Below are positions 45,966 through 51,459 of a stretch of 64,000 nt of DNA, in pieces. Each line of letters starts with the position of its first letter. The first letter of the stretch is position 1. Both the position numbers and the translations under genes were made by a program. The notes under the pieces were generated by a model. That model had not been told where the DNA came from and did no database searches. It worked only from the letters and a program-made list of their open reading frames with translations. This DNA comes from Escherichia coli (lineage in GTDB: Bacteria; Pseudomonadota; Gammaproteobacteria; Enterobacterales; Enterobacteriaceae), in assembly GCF_003018235.1 (NCBI RefSeq), contig NZ_CP027437.1; one strand, given 5' to 3'.

Positions 45966-47429
45966 ATGTCTTTAGCAAAAGATAATATATGGAAACTATT
46001 GGCCCCACTGGTGGTGATGGGCGTCATGTTTCTTATCCCTGTCCCCGACGGTATGCCACCGCAGGCATGGCATTACTTCGCTGTGTTTGTGGCAATGATT
46101 GTCGGCATGATCCTCGAGCCAATTCCGGCAACAGCGATCAGTTTTATTGCGGTTACTATTTGCGTTATTGGCAGTAATTACCTGCTCTTTGATGCCAAAG
46201 AATTAGCTGACCCAGCGTTTAATGCGCAAAAACAGGCGCTGAAATGGGGTCTGGCTGGTTTTTCCAGCACCACGGTATGGCTGGTATTTGGCGCATTTAT
46301 TTTTGCATTAGGGTATGAAGTTTCCGGGTTAGGCCGTCGTATTGCCCTTTTCCTGGTGAAATTCATGGGCAAACGCACGCTGACGTTGGGTTATGCGATT
46401 GTCATTATCGACATTCTGCTGGCACCGTTTACACCGTCCAACACCGCGCGTACCGGGGGTACGGTTTTTCCGGTCATTAAAAACCTGCCGCCGCTGTTTA
46501 AATCATTCCCGAACGATCCGTCCGCGCGTCGTATTGGCGGCTATTTGATGTGGATGATGGTCATTAGTACCAGTCTGAGTTCGTCCATGTTTGTCACCGG
46601 TGCGGCACCAAACGTGCTGGGTCTGGAGTTCGTCAGCAAAATTGCCGGTATCCAGATTAGCTGGTTGCAGTGGTTCCTCTGCTTCCTGCCGGTTGGGGTT
46701 ATCTTGCTTATCATTGCGCCGTGGCTTTCCTACGTGCTGTACAAACCGGAAATCACACACAGTGAAGAAGTGGCAACCTGGGCGGGTGATGAACTAAAAA
46801 CCATGGGTGCGCTGACACGCAGAGAGTGGACGCTGATTGGCCTTGTATTGCTCAGCTTAGGTTTGTGGGTATTTGGCAGTGAAGTCATTAATGCTACTGC
46901 GGTAGGTCTGCTGGCAGTTTCGCTAATGCTGGCCCTGCACGTTGTGCCGTGGAAAGACATTACCCGCTATAACAGCGCGTGGAACACACTGGTCAACCTG
47001 GCAACTCTGGTTGTGATGGCTAATGGCCTGACTCGTTCTGGTTTTATTGACTGGTTCGCCGGTACCATGAGTACGCACCTGGAAGGATTCTCACCAAACG
47101 CAACGGTGATTGTACTGGTTCTGGTGTTCTACTTTGCACACTACCTGTTTGCCAGCCTGTCTGCGCACACCGCAACCATGCTGCCGGTTATTCTGGCCGT
47201 CGGTAAAGGTATTCCGGGCGTACCAATGGAACAACTGTGTATTCTGCTGGTGCTGTCTATCGGTATCATGGGCTGTCTGACGCCGTATGCAACCGGTCCT
47301 GGGGTGATTATTTACGGCTGTGGCTATGTGAAATCAAAAGATTACTGGCGACTTGGTGCAATCTTCGGGGTGATTTACATCTCTATGCTGCTGTTGGTTG
47401 GCTGGCCGATTCTCGCCATGTGGAACTAA
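45966..47429 (+). CDS. citT: Citrate:succinate antiporter (DASS family)
   Basis: 487-aa polytopic membrane ORF at the end of the cit cluster. Confidence 0.93.
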   Translation: MSLAKDNIWKLLAPLVVMGVMFLIPVPDGMPPQAWHYFAVFVAMIVGMILEPIPATAISFIAVTICVIGSNYLLFDAKELADPAFNAQKQALKWGLAGFSSTTVWLVFGAFIFALGYEVSGLGRRIALFLVKFMGKRTLTLGYAIVIIDILLAPFTPSNTARTGGTVFPVIKNLPPLFKSFPNDPSARRIGGYLMWMMVISTSLSSSMFVTGAAPNVLGLEFVSKIAGIQISWLQWFLCFLPVGVILLIIAPWLSYVLYKPEITHSEEVATWAGDELKTMGALTRREWTLIGLVLLSLGLWVFGSEVINATAVGLLAVSLMLALHVVPWKDITRYNSAWNTLVNLATLVVMANGLTRSGFIDWFAGTMSTHLEGFSPNATVIVLVLVFYFAHYLFASLSAHTATMLPVILAVGKGIPGVPMEQLCILLVLSIGIMGCLTPYATGPGVIIYGCGYVKSKDYWRLGAIFGVIYISMLLLVGWPILAMWN

Positions 47430-47460
47430 TACGTTCGCCAAACGCTGAATAAATCATCAC

Positions 47461-47496
47461 GCCCGCCAGGTAAGCCCACCTGGCGGGCTTTTTTAT
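47461..47496 (+). terminator. Intrinsic terminator after citT
   Basis: GCCCGCCAGGTAAGCCCACCTGGCGGGC followed by TTTTTTAT. Confidence 0.8.
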
Positions 47497-47542
47497 GATT
47501 TAATAGATAGTATTCAGTATATGTATGAGTTCCACACCCATT

Positions 47543-48349
47543 ATGAAAGCATTCTGGCGTAACGCCGCGTTGCTCGCGGTTTCTCTGCTTCCCTTCTCTT
47601 CTGCCAACGCCGTGGCGTTGCAGGCAAAACAGTATGGCGATTTTGATCGCTATGTCCTGGCCCTCTCCTGGCAAACCGGATTTTGCCAGAGTCAACACGA
47701 TCGAAATCGTAACGAACGAGATGAATGTCGCCTGCAAACCGAAACGACCAACAAAGCTGATTTTCTGACCGTACATGGTCTGTGGCCAGGATTGCCTAAA
47801 TCGGTTGCTGCCCGTGGTGTTGATGAACGCCGCTGGATGCGCTTCGGTTGCGCTACCCGCCCAATCCCGAATCTACCAGAAGCGCGCGCCAGCCGAATGT
47901 GTTCATCGCCGGAAACTGGGTTATCGCTGGAAACGGCAGCTAAACTAAGTGAAGTCATGCCAGGAGCTGGCGGACGTTCCTGCCTGGAACGCTACGAATA
48001 TGCCAAACACGGTGCCTGCTTTGGTTTTGATCCAGACGCATACTTCGGCACGATGGTACGCCTGAATCAAGAAATTAAAGAGAGCGAAGCCGGAAAATTC
48101 CTTGCGGATAATTACGGTAAAACAGTGAGCCGCCGTGACTTTGACGCCGCCTTTGCCAAAAGCTGGGGAAAAGAGAACGTGAAAGCAGTTAAGCTAACGT
48201 GCCAGGGTAACCCTGCGTATTTGACTGAAATTCAGATCTCGATCAAAGCTGACGCCATCAACGCTCCGCTTTCTGCCAACTCATTCTTGCCACAACCACA
48301 CCCAGGCAACTGTGGCAAAACCTTTGTGATTGATAAAGCAGGTTATTAA
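47543..48349 (+). CDS. rna: Periplasmic ribonuclease I (RNase T2 family)
   Basis: 268-aa protein MKAFWRNAALLAVSLLPFSSANA (signal peptide); T2 motifs HGLWP and KHGAC. Confidence 0.93.
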   Translation: MKAFWRNAALLAVSLLPFSSANAVALQAKQYGDFDRYVLALSWQTGFCQSQHDRNRNERDECRLQTETTNKADFLTVHGLWPGLPKSVAARGVDERRWMRFGCATRPIPNLPEARASRMCSSPETGLSLETAAKLSEVMPGAGGRSCLERYEYAKHGACFGFDPDAYFGTMVRLNQEIKESEAGKFLADNYGKTVSRRDFDAAFAKSWGKENVKAVKLTCQGNPAYLTEIQISIKADAINAPLSANSFLPQPHPGNCGKTFVIDKAGY

Positions 48350-48496
48350 TCCTCTGATTTACAAAACACGCTAATTCGTCTTCCATAAACCATGACGATT
48401 AAGATTTATACATAATGCGCTACATTGAGGAATTCCCTGAATGTGACGCAAATCACTTCAAAGAGTGAGCAACAGTCAGTATCATCATGTGAGTTA

Positions 48497-48530
48497 AACC
48501 CTCGCCGCCTGACGGTGAGGGTTTTCTTTT
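48497..48530 (+). terminator. Hairpin plus T-run in the rna-rnk spacer
   Basis: AACCCTCGCC-GCCTGAC-GGTGAGGGTT followed by TTCTTTTG, about 50 bp upstream of rnk ATG. Confidence 0.55.
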
Positions 48531-48578
48531 GGGTATGTTTATCTGCGACACTCGCAGTACCGACGACATGGAGTAAAA

Positions 48579-48989
48579 ATGTCCAGACCAACTATCATCA
48601 TTAACGACCTGGATGCCGAACGCATCGATATTCTGCTGGAGCAACCCGCCTATGCTGGTTTGCCAATCGCCGACGCGTTAAACGCAGAGTTGGATCGCGC
48701 CCAAATGTGTTCGCCAGAAGAGATGCCACACGACGTGGTGACAATGAACAGCCGGGTTAAATTCCGCAATCTTAGCGATGGCGAAGTGCGTGTGCGCACG
48801 CTGGTGTATCCGGCAAAAATGACCGACAGCAATACTCAGCTTTCCGTTATGGCTCCGGTAGGTGCCGCACTGCTGGGGCTGCGCGTTGGCGATTCCATTC
48901 ACTGGGAACTTCCGGGCGGCGTTGCAACCCACCTTGAAGTACTGGAACTCGAATACCAGCCAGAAGCTGCTGGCGACTACCTGCTTTAA
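48579..48989 (+). CDS. rnk: Regulator of nucleoside diphosphate kinase (GreA/GreB-like)
   Basis: 136-aa [25 protein letters not shown]... Confidence 0.92.
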
Positions 48990-49024
48990 TCCCATCTGCA
49001 CAAGCGATAACTCGCTTTGCCCAG

Positions 49025-49048
49025 AGGATGCACTCGCATCCTCTTTCC
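49025..49048 (+). terminator. Intrinsic terminator after rnk
   Basis: GAGGATGC-ACTC-GCATCCTC followed by TTTCC. Confidence 0.55.
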
Positions 49049-49131
49049 GCTCAAATATCAACCAGATTTATCATTTTGCTCTTAAGCGCAGCATTCTAAT
49101 CTGAACTGGTTATTCATCTGCGGAACCTCAT

Positions 49132-49221
49132 ATGAGCGAAGCTCTCGGTATCACTGCATTTTATATATTCATAGCAGCAATTATTGTTGCTGCAGTGCTA
49201 TACCTTGAACAACGCTGGTAG
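49132..49221 (+). CDS. Candidate 29-codon hydrophobic small ORF (single predicted TM helix); speculative
   Basis: ATG 49132 to TAG 49219: MSEALGITAFYIFIAAIIVAAVLYLEQRW; weak SD; not in supplied ORF track because under 60 aa. Confidence 0.2.
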   Translation: MSEALGITAFYIFIAAIIVAAVLYLEQRW

Positions 49222-49344
49222 CGCCTGGTTTTATTTATTTTCCAGCTCAATAGCAAATTCAGATCAAATCAGCCTCGCAAATCATAGATTCATAACCAAT
49301 AATGTGCTGTTATGTATACATGCAAAAACAAGGAGAGAATGCTT

Positions 49345-49773
49345 ATGTACAAAACAATCATCATGCCAGTGGATGTTTTCGAAATGGAATTGAGCGACAA
49401 AGCGGTTCGCCACGCTGAATTCCTCGCCCAGGATGACGGAGTTATTCATCTACTTCACGTACTACCGGGGTCAGCCAGCCTGAGCCTGCACCGTTTTGCC
49501 GCTGATGTACGTCGTTTTGAAGAGCATCTGCAACATGAAGCAGAAGAACGTTTGCAAACGATGGTCAGCCACTTCACCATCGATCCTTCCCGCATTAAAC
49601 AACATGTCCGTTTTGGTAGCGTGCGGGATGAAGTCAATGAGTTGGCAGAAGAACTGGGGGCTGATGTTGTCGTTATCGGTTCGCGCAACCCATCGATTTC
49701 GACCCATCTGTTAGGTTCTAACGCCTCAAGCGTTATCCGCCACGCCAATCTGCCGGTGCTGGTTGTGCGTTAA
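49345..49773 (+). CDS. uspG: Universal stress protein G
   Basis: 142-aa UspA-fold protein from [20 protein letters not shown]; AGGAG SD 9 nt upstream. Confidence 0.92.
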
Positions 49774-49787
49774 TTGCCAGAATAAAT

Positions 49788-49828
49788 ATCCCGCCCTGCC
49801 CGGAGCCATCCCGGCGGGGCTTTTTATT
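49788..49828 (+). terminator. Intrinsic terminator after uspG
   Basis: CCCGCC...GGCGGGG hairpin followed by CTTTTTA. Confidence 0.65.
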
Positions 49829-49833
49829 GCCAT

Positions 49834-49863
49834 AAAAAAGCCGCCAGGTTTGACCCCGGCGGC
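49834..49863 (-). terminator. Intrinsic terminator after ahpF (minus strand)
   Basis: GCCGCC...GGCGGC hairpin with T-run on the minus strand. Confidence 0.6.
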
Positions 49864-49893
49864 TAAGCAATTGCAGGTGAATCTTACTTCTTC

Positions 49894-51459
49894 TTATGCA
49901 GTTTTGGTGCGAATCAGGTAGTCAAAAGCACTCAGAGAGGCTTTGGCACCTTCGCCAGTGGCGATGATGATCTGCTTGTACGGAACCGTCGTACAGTCAC
50001 CCGCTGCGAACACGCCTTTCACGTTGGTTTCGCATTTCGCATCAATGATAATCTCGCCCATGCGGTTACGTTCGACTGCGCCTTCGAGCCAGTTGGTGTT
50101 CGGCAGCAGACCAATCTGCACGAAAATACCGGCCAGTTCGATGTTGTGAATATCGCCGCTGACACGATCTCGATATTCCAGACCTACGACTTTGCTACCG
50201 TCGCCTTTCACTTCCGTGGTTTGCGCATTCAGAATAATGTCGACGTTTTTCAGGCTGCGCAGTTTGTCCTGCAGAACCTGGTCGGCTTTCATTTCTGGCG
50301 CAAATTCCAGCAGCGTTACGTGCTCAACGATACCCGCCAGGTCAATTGCCGCTTCCACGCCGGAGTTACCGCCGCCGATAACCGCTACGCGTTTACCTTT
50401 AAACAGCGGGCCGTCGCAGTGCGGGCAGTAGGTCACGCCTTTGGTGCGATACTGATCTTCGCCCGGAACGTTCATGTTGCGCCATTTTGCACCGGTCGCC
50501 ACGATAATGCTGCGTGCTTTCAGTACCGCGCCAGAAGCTGTTTCAATCTGATGCAGGCCACCTTCAACCGCTGCCGGGATCAGTTTGCTGGCGCTCTGGC
50601 TGTCGATCACATCAACGTCGTATTCATCAACGTGAACTTTCAGCGCACCTGCCAGTTTCTGGCCTTCGGTCTTCGGTACAGAAATGTAGTTTTCGATATC
50701 AACGGTATCGAGGATCTGACCACCAAAACGTTCGCCCATCAAACCAGTACGGATACCTTTACGTGCGGAGTAAATTGCTGCCGCTGCACCCGCCGGGCCG
50801 GAACCGACGATTAATACGTCATAAGCATCACGCTTGTTCAGCTCTTCTGCCGCACGTTTTTCCGCGCCAGTATCAATTTTGGCGACGATTTCAGTCAACG
50901 TCATGCGACCCTGACCAAACTCTTTCCCGTTTACGAACACTGCCGGAACGCCCATCACGTTGCGATCGGTGATTTCGTTCTGGAAGGTGCCGCCGTCAAT
51001 TGCAGTGTGCTTGATGCGCGGGTTCAGTACGCTCATCAGATTCAGCGCCTGCACCACATCCGGGCAGTTGTGGCAAGAGAGCGAGTAATAGGTTTCGAAT
51101 TCAAAATCACCGTCAATATGGCGAATCTGCTCCAGCAGAGACTGCGCTTCTTTCGACGGATGACCACCGGTCCACAACAACGCCAGTACCAGCGAGGTAA
51201 ACTCGTGGCCCAGCGGGGAACCTGCAAAACGTGGCCCCTGGTTGGAACCTGGGTTAGTGATCAGGAAAGACGGCTTACGCACCGGCAAGCTGTTATCTTC
51301 TTTAAAGGTGACTTTGTCTGACAGTTCTGCGATTTCAGCCAACAGTTCCTTGATTTCTGCCGATTTAGCGCTGTCATCCAGCGTGGCAATTAACTCAACA
51401 GGCTTGGTCAATTTCTCAAGGTAAGCCTTGAGTTGAGTTTTCATATTTGTGTCGAGCAT
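49894..51459 (-). CDS. ahpF: Alkyl hydroperoxide reductase subunit F
   Basis: 521-aa protein from [17 protein letters not shown]; redox CHNC and CPHC motifs and FAD/NAD Rossmann folds. Confidence 0.95.

Follow-up and report, generated by a model that had tools for sequence, protein, structure and literature searches.

A terminator hairpin between rna and rnk of Escherichia coli: a catalogued rnk leader that ends rna, with a CRP site and a candidate rnk promoter just upstream

The rna–rnk interval and its hairpin

The window analysed here is a stretch of 64,000 nucleotides of Escherichia coli DNA, in which the gene of RNase I, rna, is followed on the same strand by rnk, the gene of a protein with a Gre-family fold. 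The features that occupy the space between these two genes are collected in Table 1. A first-pass annotation, made from the letters of the DNA, had drawn attention to a strong hairpin with a T-run at 48497-48530, which it saw as following some 150 bp of untranslated DNA after rna and as standing only about 50 bp ahead of the rnk start codon. This description is correct to within a single nucleotide: the stem starts at 48496, the spacer between the rna stop codon and the stem measures 146 nt, and the last T of the run lies 48 nt from the rnk ATG.

Table 1. Features of the rna–rnk interval, in window coordinates
Feature	Position	Strand	Basis or detail
rna (RNase I) CDS	47543-48349	+	RefSeq annotation of the identical E. 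coli locus; ORF list
RF01771 match, 'Enterobacteria rnk leader' (cis-regulatory leader)	48425-48533	+	cmscan
CRP binding site; core TGTGA (48442-46), N6, TCACT (48453-57)	48439-48460	.	motif, ChIP-seq, SELEX
-35-like hexamer TTCAAA of the inferred rnk promoter	48457-48462	+	promoter scan, alignment
-10-like hexamer TATCAT of the inferred rnk promoter	48480-48485	+	promoter scan, alignment
Predicted transcription start of the inferred rnk promoter	48491-48493	+	-10 position and purine pair
rna terminator / rnk leader stem-loop	48496-48524	+	12 bp, loop CCTGA
T-run / U-tract TTTTCTTTT	48522-48530	+	sequence
Small palindrome/hairpin CTGCGA-cac-TCGCAG in the rnk 5' UTR	48543-48557	+	alignment
rnk Shine-Dalgarno GGAG in the nearly invariant block CATGGAGTAA	48570-48573	+	alignment of 81 upstream regions
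rnk CDS (Gre-family fold; Pfam Rnk_N and GreA_GreB)	48579-48989	+	ORF list, annotation, Pfam

The hairpin reads AAACCCTCGCCG-CCTGA-CGGTGAGGGTTT, continues as TCTTTT to the end of the T-run and is then followed by GGG. In the terminator scan seven of the 12 pairs of its stem are G-C and the loop counts 5 nt; the first three T of the T-run pair with an AAA of the stem. The 46 nt at 48490-48535 fold with -21.3 kcal/mol, as against -11.1 +/- 2.35 for shuffled versions (z = -4.3), and none of 200 shuffles did as well. A REP-like repeat was considered and rejected, as the hairpin is single-copy in the 64-kb window and occurs about once per genome: a query region of 351 bp has its match, usually a single one, in 5422 of the 5426 complete E. 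coli genomes.

Comparison with relatives drew on 80 rnk loci, one per species, together with ten Salmonella contigs, the genera sampled being Escherichia, Citrobacter, Salmonella, Enterobacter, Lelliottia, Leclercia, Kluyvera, Kosakonia, Trabulsiella, Yokenella, Phytobacter, Shimwellia and others. The locus alignment holds 78 distinct sequences and that of the upstream regions 81; a search for Rnk homologues aimed at Klebsiella, Serratia and Yersinia returned only relatives of at least 78% identity. Over the 78 distinct enterobacterial sequences the terminator stem is 99.2% paired, with three pairs changed on both sides and six showing one-sided wobble changes, and the RNAalifold consensus retains it. 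The T-run is either invariant or TTTTTCTTT across all genomes of the alignment. We therefore find together the attributes of an intrinsic terminator, namely a G+C-rich stem with an adjoining U-run, upkeep by compensatory or wobble changes and, from published data, RNA 3' ends in vivo.

These in vivo ends come from strain MG1655, the coordinates of which equal 692546 minus the window coordinate. No indels separate MG1655 from the window in the intergenic region, and the two agree letter for letter in the hairpin and T-run, while the nine SNPs found in 48150-48600 all fall outside the elements discussed here. SMRT-Cappable-seq of MG1655 in M9 medium (Yan 2018, Supplementary Data 1) reports a reverse-strand transcript at 644017-645034 which covers b0611 (rna), with 37 reads from the rna start site at 645034. 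Ten reads end at 644017, which is window position 48529, the penultimate T of the run; four end at most 50 bp downstream of this position, and two pass the hairpin, by a median of ~470 nt, which takes them approximately as far as rnk extends. An estimate of read-through at the hairpin would be based on very few reads, ten ending against two going through. The start of rna was placed independently by Kim 2012, 31 nt upstream of the rna ATG. The curated Term-seq tables of Adams 2021 hold no 3' end at the rnk hairpin (64401x). Because the rna transcripts of MG1655 have their 3' ends at window position 48529, the hairpin is the terminator of rna in E. coli: the rna mRNA extends through the intergenic region as far as the hairpin, with a 3' UTR of ~180 nt.

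A catalogued leader that accompanies rnk

The hairpin is already known, as it belongs to the catalogued rnk leader, a fact of which the first-pass annotation was unaware, as it was of the CRP site and candidate promoter just upstream. In an Rfam scan covering 47300-49400, the coding strand matches RF01771 with 124.9 bits, the gathering score of the family being 50 (E = 1.6e-24). The match covers positions 1-109 of the 109 of the model, and its end is 46 nt upstream of the rnk ATG. A match to snoZ223 at 49044-49126 was dismissed as due to chance, being below threshold and belonging to a eukaryotic family. The RF01771 family originates from Naville & Gautheret 2010, who predicted an attenuator, grouped it with the greA leader, reported a 'clear antiterminator' in the rnk leader and noted that the rna-rnk intergenic region had been co-immunoprecipitated with Hfq. 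Locus, strand and extent are the same in the work of Naville & Gautheret 2010 and here, with a terminator stem-loop and a U-tract before rnk in both, and there is no sequence difference to speak of: the window is a member of the family. Where we differ is in the reading of the model, since its helix 1 behaves as a CRP palindrome devoid of covariation and its 'linker' resembles -35 and -10 elements. That the hairpin and its U-run form a working Rho-independent terminator and belong to RF01771 is thus almost certain.

The leader keeps company with rnk rather than with rna. RF01771 is present in nine of the ten other genera tested, likewise upstream of rnk, and the hairpin and T-run are retained in all sampled rnk loci, where they precede the rnk ATG by 46-90 nt. 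The gene rna is the immediate upstream neighbour in no other genera than Escherichia, Salmonella, Kosakonia, Phytobacter and, in a few cases, Citrobacter; in Enterobacter, Kluyvera, Lelliottia, Leclercia and Trabulsiella it ends at a distance of 850-1240 nt, and it is not found within 1.5 kb upstream in many Citrobacter, Superficieibacter, Silvania and Intestinirhabdus. In the loci examined of Citrobacter, Kluyvera, Superficieibacter, Silvania and Intestinirhabdus the neighbour of rnk is a divergent gene of an alpha/beta hydrolase, and in Enterobacter it is a gene of a flavin-reductase-like protein, transcribed away from rnk. RF01771 still scores above threshold where the upstream neighbour is divergent. 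The hairpin is kept where there is no upstream gene to terminate, and it is therefore part of the 5' region of rnk; to judge from these gene orders, termination of rna is probably a second job of the hairpin, specific to some lineages. In E. coli the hairpin very probably has this dual use, as rna terminator and as rnk leader. Closer to the gene, the small palindrome of the rnk 5' UTR is kept in Escherichia, Citrobacter, Enterobacter and Lelliottia and is missing from Kluyvera and Kosakonia.

A CRP site and promoter-like elements upstream of the hairpin

Immediately upstream of the stem lies a block of striking regularity. In 90 of 91 loci it can be written as (N)GTG(N)-N6-TCACT-TC(A/C)(A/C)(A/T), exactly 17 nt, TAT(C/G/T)AT, 9-13 nt and the hairpin, and 47 of its alignment columns are gap-free over the 78 distinct sequences, TCACT being invariant. 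The N6 segment is ~0.6 conserved and fixed in length. The 17-nt spacer is fixed in length as well, its first 13 columns ~0.5 conserved and its last four (T/C-C-A-G) 0.77-1.0. Such fixed length combined with free sequence is to be expected from the geometry of proteins bound to DNA.

The downstream part of the block resembles a sigma-70 promoter. In the promoter scan TTCAAA-17-TATCAT shows nine of twelve consensus matches with a 17-nt spacer; the promoter rule holds at this position in 79 of 81 genomes, and the site is flagged in E. coli, Kluyvera, Enterobacter and Salmonella when each is scanned by itself. The -35-like hexamer is TTCAAA in 79 of 90 loci and TTCACA, which is nearer to consensus and is the form of Kosakonia, in nine of the 90 (column conservation 0.97). 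The -10-like hexamer is TAT(C/G/T)AT in 90 of 91 loci (conservation 0.94), its fourth position alone being variable. A conserved purine pair, AG, follows 7-8 nt past the -10 hexamer, at 48492-93, and the predicted start would fall 3-5 nt before the stem. Experimental starts at ~48492 are found neither in Adams 2021 nor in Kim 2012 nor, among the entries listed, in Cappable-seq 2016 (6440xx), and the only 'rnk' start reported by Kim 2012 lies inside rna, at window position 48201. The rnk 'TSS' given as 642779 in Latif 2018 S1 is uninformative, since it corresponds to the left boundary of the gene in an older numbering. A leader peptide was also considered and set aside, as no ORF is conserved, neither the ATG-TGA at 48487-92 nor any of the long ORFs that begin with TTG. 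It must be stressed that a start only 4 nt ahead of a strong terminator would be an unusual arrangement, which counts against the candidate promoter.

The upstream part of the block is a CRP site. TGTGACGCAAATCACT (48442-57) matches nine of the ten core bases of TGTGA-N6-TCACA, and TGTGA-N6-TCAC occurs once in the 64-kb window. The promoter-proximal half-site overlaps the -35-like hexamer, and a distance of 30.5 bp separates the centre of the site, at 48449/48450, from the base with which the -10 hexamer begins. In class II promoters CRP binds at a site centred near -41.5, overlapping the -35 region, and the site at hand would be centred at -41.5 or -42.5 of the predicted start, the distance of a class II activator. 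CRP ChIP-seq of ETEC H10407 lists the reverse complement, AGTGATTTGCGTCACA, for rnk, and Genomic SELEX counts rnk among 119 new CRP targets. The chances appear even that TTCAAA-17-TATCAT, overlapped by CRP, is the main start of rnk in E. coli.

The CRP site coincides with 'hairpin 1' of RF01771, and it is of interest to ask how that element fares as an RNA helix. Over the 78 sequences, three of its seven pairs never vary, and compensatory changes are absent from all seven; the remaining four are broken in 5-24 of the 78. Every change falls on the left arm, the right arm, which overlaps the -35 hexamer, never changing at all, and RNAalifold keeps only the three invariant pairs, GUG/CAC. The 5' helix of RF01771 does not behave here as a conserved RNA structure, a result that concerns the interpretation of the model and leaves the membership of the sequence unaffected.

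A short RNA has been described at this place in Salmonella Typhimurium. Sridhar et al. 2010 predicted sRNA10 with sRNAscanner between rnk (STM0616) and rna (STM0617), on the same strand, at 679927-679828 (~100 nt), with a 5' RACE end at 679922. It was Northern-positive only in late stationary phase, depends on sigma-S (six reads in an rpoS mutant against 117 in the wild type), is listed among the sRNAs with SPI2-like expression and is present in Hfq libraries. The Salmonella locus is RF01771 at 125.7 bits. Under either plausible coordinate convention the RACE end lies upstream of the CRP palindrome, and a long leader is therefore transcribed in Salmonella; the conserved blocks could thus also act at the RNA level. 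At ~30 nt ahead of the CRP site, Salmonella and Citrobacter carry a further promoter of good quality, TTGAGA-18-(C)TAAAAT. Its E. coli version is degenerate (TAAGAT at 48400-05, devoid of a -35 element and unflagged by the scan), and a nearer TACATT of the window is TGCATT in MG1655. In three Citrobacter genomes the rna stop codon abuts the CRP site, leaving no room for an upstream promoter. As to the relation with the present locus, sRNA10 occupies the corresponding interval and strand and has its 3' end at the orthologous hairpin; it has been shown experimentally only in Salmonella, where the upstream promoter is strong, whereas that of E. coli is degenerate. In E. coli, RIL-seq has recorded '5'rnk' as an Hfq-associated partner of fepA, in the form of chimeras.

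Readings of the locus and likenesses to known systems

It could be argued that we are dealing with an ordinary gene-end terminator: the hairpin would end rna only, the promoter of rnk would overlap it or lie downstream (48510-48578), and no rnk transcript would ever cross it. The rna transcripts do end there, and a weak TATGTT can be read at 48534-39 in E. coli. This hexamer is not conserved, however, Enterobacter having TTGGATTGGTTTCTG instead; the E. coli scan finds no promoter-like site between the hairpin and the ATG, and a match downstream of the hairpin appears in only four of 81 genomes, each time overlapping the ATG, the other 77 being devoid of any. Room is also scarce, as Kluyvera and Kosakonia have only ~15-20 nt between the T-run and the Shine-Dalgarno sequence. 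Finally, the hairpin and T-run are kept beside a divergent gene or with rna more than 850 nt away, so that this account is highly improbable. The opposite emphasis would make the element a gene of a trans-acting, Hfq-binding sRNA, either a homologue of sRNA10 or an RNA derived from the rna 3'UTR, in which the hairpin serves as terminator and Hfq module while read-through into rnk is incidental. Detection of sRNA10 by Northern blot in Salmonella, its sigma-S dependence, its presence in Hfq libraries and the '5'rnk'-fepA chimeras of E. coli all speak for such a gene, and conserved unpaired stretches could be seed regions. Its targets, however, are only putative. Moreover, the element always stands at a short fixed distance from the rnk ATG, there is no other conserved rnk promoter, spacers of fixed length and variable sequence fit protein-DNA geometry better than the body of an sRNA, and the sRNA10-type promoter is poor in E. 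coli. We hold it to be quite unlikely.

The reading of Naville & Gautheret and of Rfam, that of a classical attenuator, deserves closer scrutiny. A leader of ~100-120 nt, begun upstream of 48440, would fold into hairpin 1 together with either an antiterminator or the terminator, the choice being made by a signal. The model and its match are those of RF01771, an antiterminator has been reported, the 5' end of sRNA10 lies upstream of the palindrome, and Salmonella and Citrobacter have the good TTGAGA-18-TAAAAT promoter to produce such a leader. Against this stands hairpin 1 itself, with no compensatory change, with variation confined to one arm and with a palindrome that is a CRP site bound in vivo. 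The antiterminator fares no better: it is absent from the RNAalifold consensus fold, which keeps just three invariant pairs upstream, and when the leaders of five genera were folded without the 3' arm, the partners of the 5' arm were weak and genus-specific, with z-scores of -2.2 to +0.7 that are not significant. The antiterminator stated by Naville & Gautheret 2010 could therefore not be reproduced by consensus folding or by folding deprived of the 3' arm. The upstream promoter, for its part, exists in E. coli only in a degenerate form, and the loci in which the rna stop codon adjoins the CRP site lack it altogether. A classical attenuator is in our opinion unlikely.

We are left with an explanation that unites the observations, to which we assign a probability of about 70%: the hairpin would be the terminator of the RF01771 leader and the terminator of rna, with the CRP-overlapped promoter of rnk upstream. 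The hairpin would lie inside the transcription unit of rnk, downstream of every plausible rnk promoter. All conserved promoter-like sites are upstream of it, and it is kept where no upstream gene needs it; for these two reasons RNA polymerase would have to cross it in order to make rnk mRNA. Molecules terminated there would come free as a short leader RNA with a U tail, to which sRNA10 would correspond in Salmonella and possibly the Hfq-associated '5'rnk' in E. coli. No conserved antiterminator pairing being present, one should think of a constitutive partial block or of modulation in trans rather than of a classical switch, and termination indeed looks like a leaky, constitutively partial event or one modulated in trans. 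Transcription from the best candidate promoter, TTCAAA-17-TATCAT, would start near 48492, ~4 nt before the stem, in which case the 5' two-thirds of the RF01771 model would largely be promoter DNA and the read-through mRNA would begin with the hairpin, which may be a 5'-terminal stabilizer.

It is worth considering how the three proposals of the first-pass annotation now stand. It had suggested a terminator of rna followed by a very short rnk promoter: the terminator is borne out by the rna transcripts that end at 48529 in SMRT-Cappable-seq, and the short promoter has to be given up, as 48530-48579, where it had called for promoter prediction, contains no promoter-like site in E. coli and no conserved -10 element in 81 genomes. 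It had suggested a leader attenuator of rnk: a published class, RF01771, does correspond to it, and the module follows rnk in the absence of rna, but a conserved antiterminator is missing. The 3' end of a small transcript, its last suggestion, receives support from the homology with Salmonella sRNA10 and from the '5'rnk' RNA of E. coli RIL-seq.

The same explanation can be pushed further, in a form that we put forward tentatively and that is more apt to fail than to hold. Most of what is called the rnk leader RNA would be a class II, CRP-activated sigma-70 promoter placed ~4 nt before a terminator, and rnk would be expressed solely by read-through of a hairpin at about +5. Every round of initiation would lead to one of two products, a U-tailed RNA of ~38 nt that binds Hfq or an rnk mRNA with a protective stem-loop at its 5' end, and the same hairpin would end rna where this gene is adjacent. 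The terminated product of ~38 nt, longer in Salmonella, may speculatively act with Hfq. Since Rnk resembles the Gre proteins and binds RNA polymerase, it may, again as a matter of speculation, feed back on read-through, which would make autoregulation possible.

The consequences are of a practical nature. In genome annotation, the feature should be labelled both as RF01771 (rnk leader) and as terminator of rna. For Rfam curation, RF01771 may need revision of the start of the RNA, of its extent and of its mechanism, because its helix 1 is without covariation and coincides with a bound CRP site and a promoter-like block. What is new here is limited to this angle: part of the RF01771 model seems to describe a promoter and its CRP site, not a helix of RNA. 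The presence of the CRP site and of a leaky terminator also bears on the weak expression of citT from the captured promoter; a link to the timing of citT expression after exhaustion of glucose would be inference only.

A close likeness is to be found in the leader of greA. Details of its short RNAs, GraL, have reportedly been given by Potrykus et al. in 2010. As is proposed for the rnk leader, an intrinsic terminator close to the promoter releases short leader RNAs, and the gene concerned is a paralogous member of the Gre family; the greA and rnk leaders were discussed together by Naville & Gautheret 2010. With class II CRP promoters such as galP1, the rnk candidate shares a consensus-like CRP site laid over the -35 region, the start and the activation being only predicted in the case of rnk; it is unlike the galP1 type in having a terminator at about +5. 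The dual use of one hairpin also has a parallel, as the terminator of the E. coli frd operon is said to double as the attenuator of ampC, a finding ascribed to Grundstrom and Jaurin in 1982. In frd/ampC, and probably also in rna-rnk, a single hairpin placed past the promoter of the downstream gene ends the upstream unit and serves as a leader terminator; the sequences are unrelated, and at rnk this dual use is restricted to those genera in which rna is adjacent.

Starts and promoters upstream of the terminator

A start assigned to rnk by Kim et al. (2012) corresponds to position 48201 of the window, within the rna coding sequence and 378 nt before the rnk ATG, and transcripts initiated there would also run into the hairpin of the intrinsic terminator between rna and rnk. 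Salmonella and Citrobacter carry a good promoter, TTGAGA-18-(C)TAAAAT, some 30 nt ahead of the CRP site; it is probably the sigma-S-dependent promoter of sRNA10, the short RNA found between rna and rnk in Salmonella Typhimurium. Its TAAAAT block is widely conserved among rnk upstream regions, while the E. coli counterpart is degenerate, reading TAAGAT (48400-48405) and lacking a -35 element.

In the Salmonella intergenic region the CRP-site block also occurs a second time in degenerate form, CCCGAATGTAGACTAAAATTCAC as compared with CCCGAATGTGAACTAAATCAC (about 1309-1331 and 1359-1379 of its locus, respectively), which suggests an old local duplication. In many genera a divergent alpha/beta-hydrolase gene, or in Enterobacter a flavin-reductase-like gene, separates rna from rnk; the conserved CRP site is then placed in a divergent intergenic region, where it might serve both genes.

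Features of the rnk leader and neighbouring genes

Features located in the window and in other enterobacterial rnk loci (L numbers; L021, Salmonella)
Feature	Position	Strand	Remark
-10-like TAAGCT	window 48190-48195		accompanies the 48201 start
Promoter TTGAGA-18-(C)TAAAAT	L021 1297-1326		promoter scan
Divergent gene between rna and rnk	L006, L058, L063, L025, L047: about 400-1360	minus
Divergent gene between rna and rnk	L026 641-1381
Small palindrome CTGCGA-cac-TCGCAG	window 48543-48557		rnk 5' UTR; sequence alignment
Two-codon mini-ORF ATG-GAG-TAA	window 48568-48576		overlaps rnk Shine-Dalgarno GGAG (48570-73)
Strong terminator-like hairpin and T-run	window 47461-47488		directly after citT, some 50 nt ahead of the rna ATG; terminator scan

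Downstream of the terminator, the alignment of rnk upstream regions shows that the outer 5 bp of the 5' UTR palindrome are kept in Escherichia, Citrobacter, Enterobacter and Lelliottia while its inner positions vary, and that Kluyvera and Kosakonia have no equivalent; the element may represent either an RNA hairpin or a binding site for a protein. The block CATGGAGTAA around the Shine-Dalgarno sequence is almost invariant across the 81 aligned genomes. Since either the ATG or the TAA of the mini-ORF is missing in a few of them, this reading frame probably reflects simply the context of the ribosome-binding site. Some database Rnk proteins (P0006, P0007 and P0014; 212 aa) carry an N-terminal extension starting within the leader region, with an additional Pfam match (PF23689), and are probably gene-calling artefacts.

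The gene order after rnk was compared between this strain (48990-49900) and MG1655 (642088-643419). Here yldA, uspG and ahpF come next, and the ybdR gene that MG1655 has between uspG and yldA is absent; in Salmonella, a gene for a ybdR-like alcohol dehydrogenase lies beyond rnk.

The citT-rna junction

The arrangement at rnk has a parallel upstream of rna, where the citT-rna junction displays the same kind of tight packing of terminator and promoter. The 50-nt upstream sequence listed by Kim et al. (2012) for the rna start site takes in most of the hairpin that follows citT.
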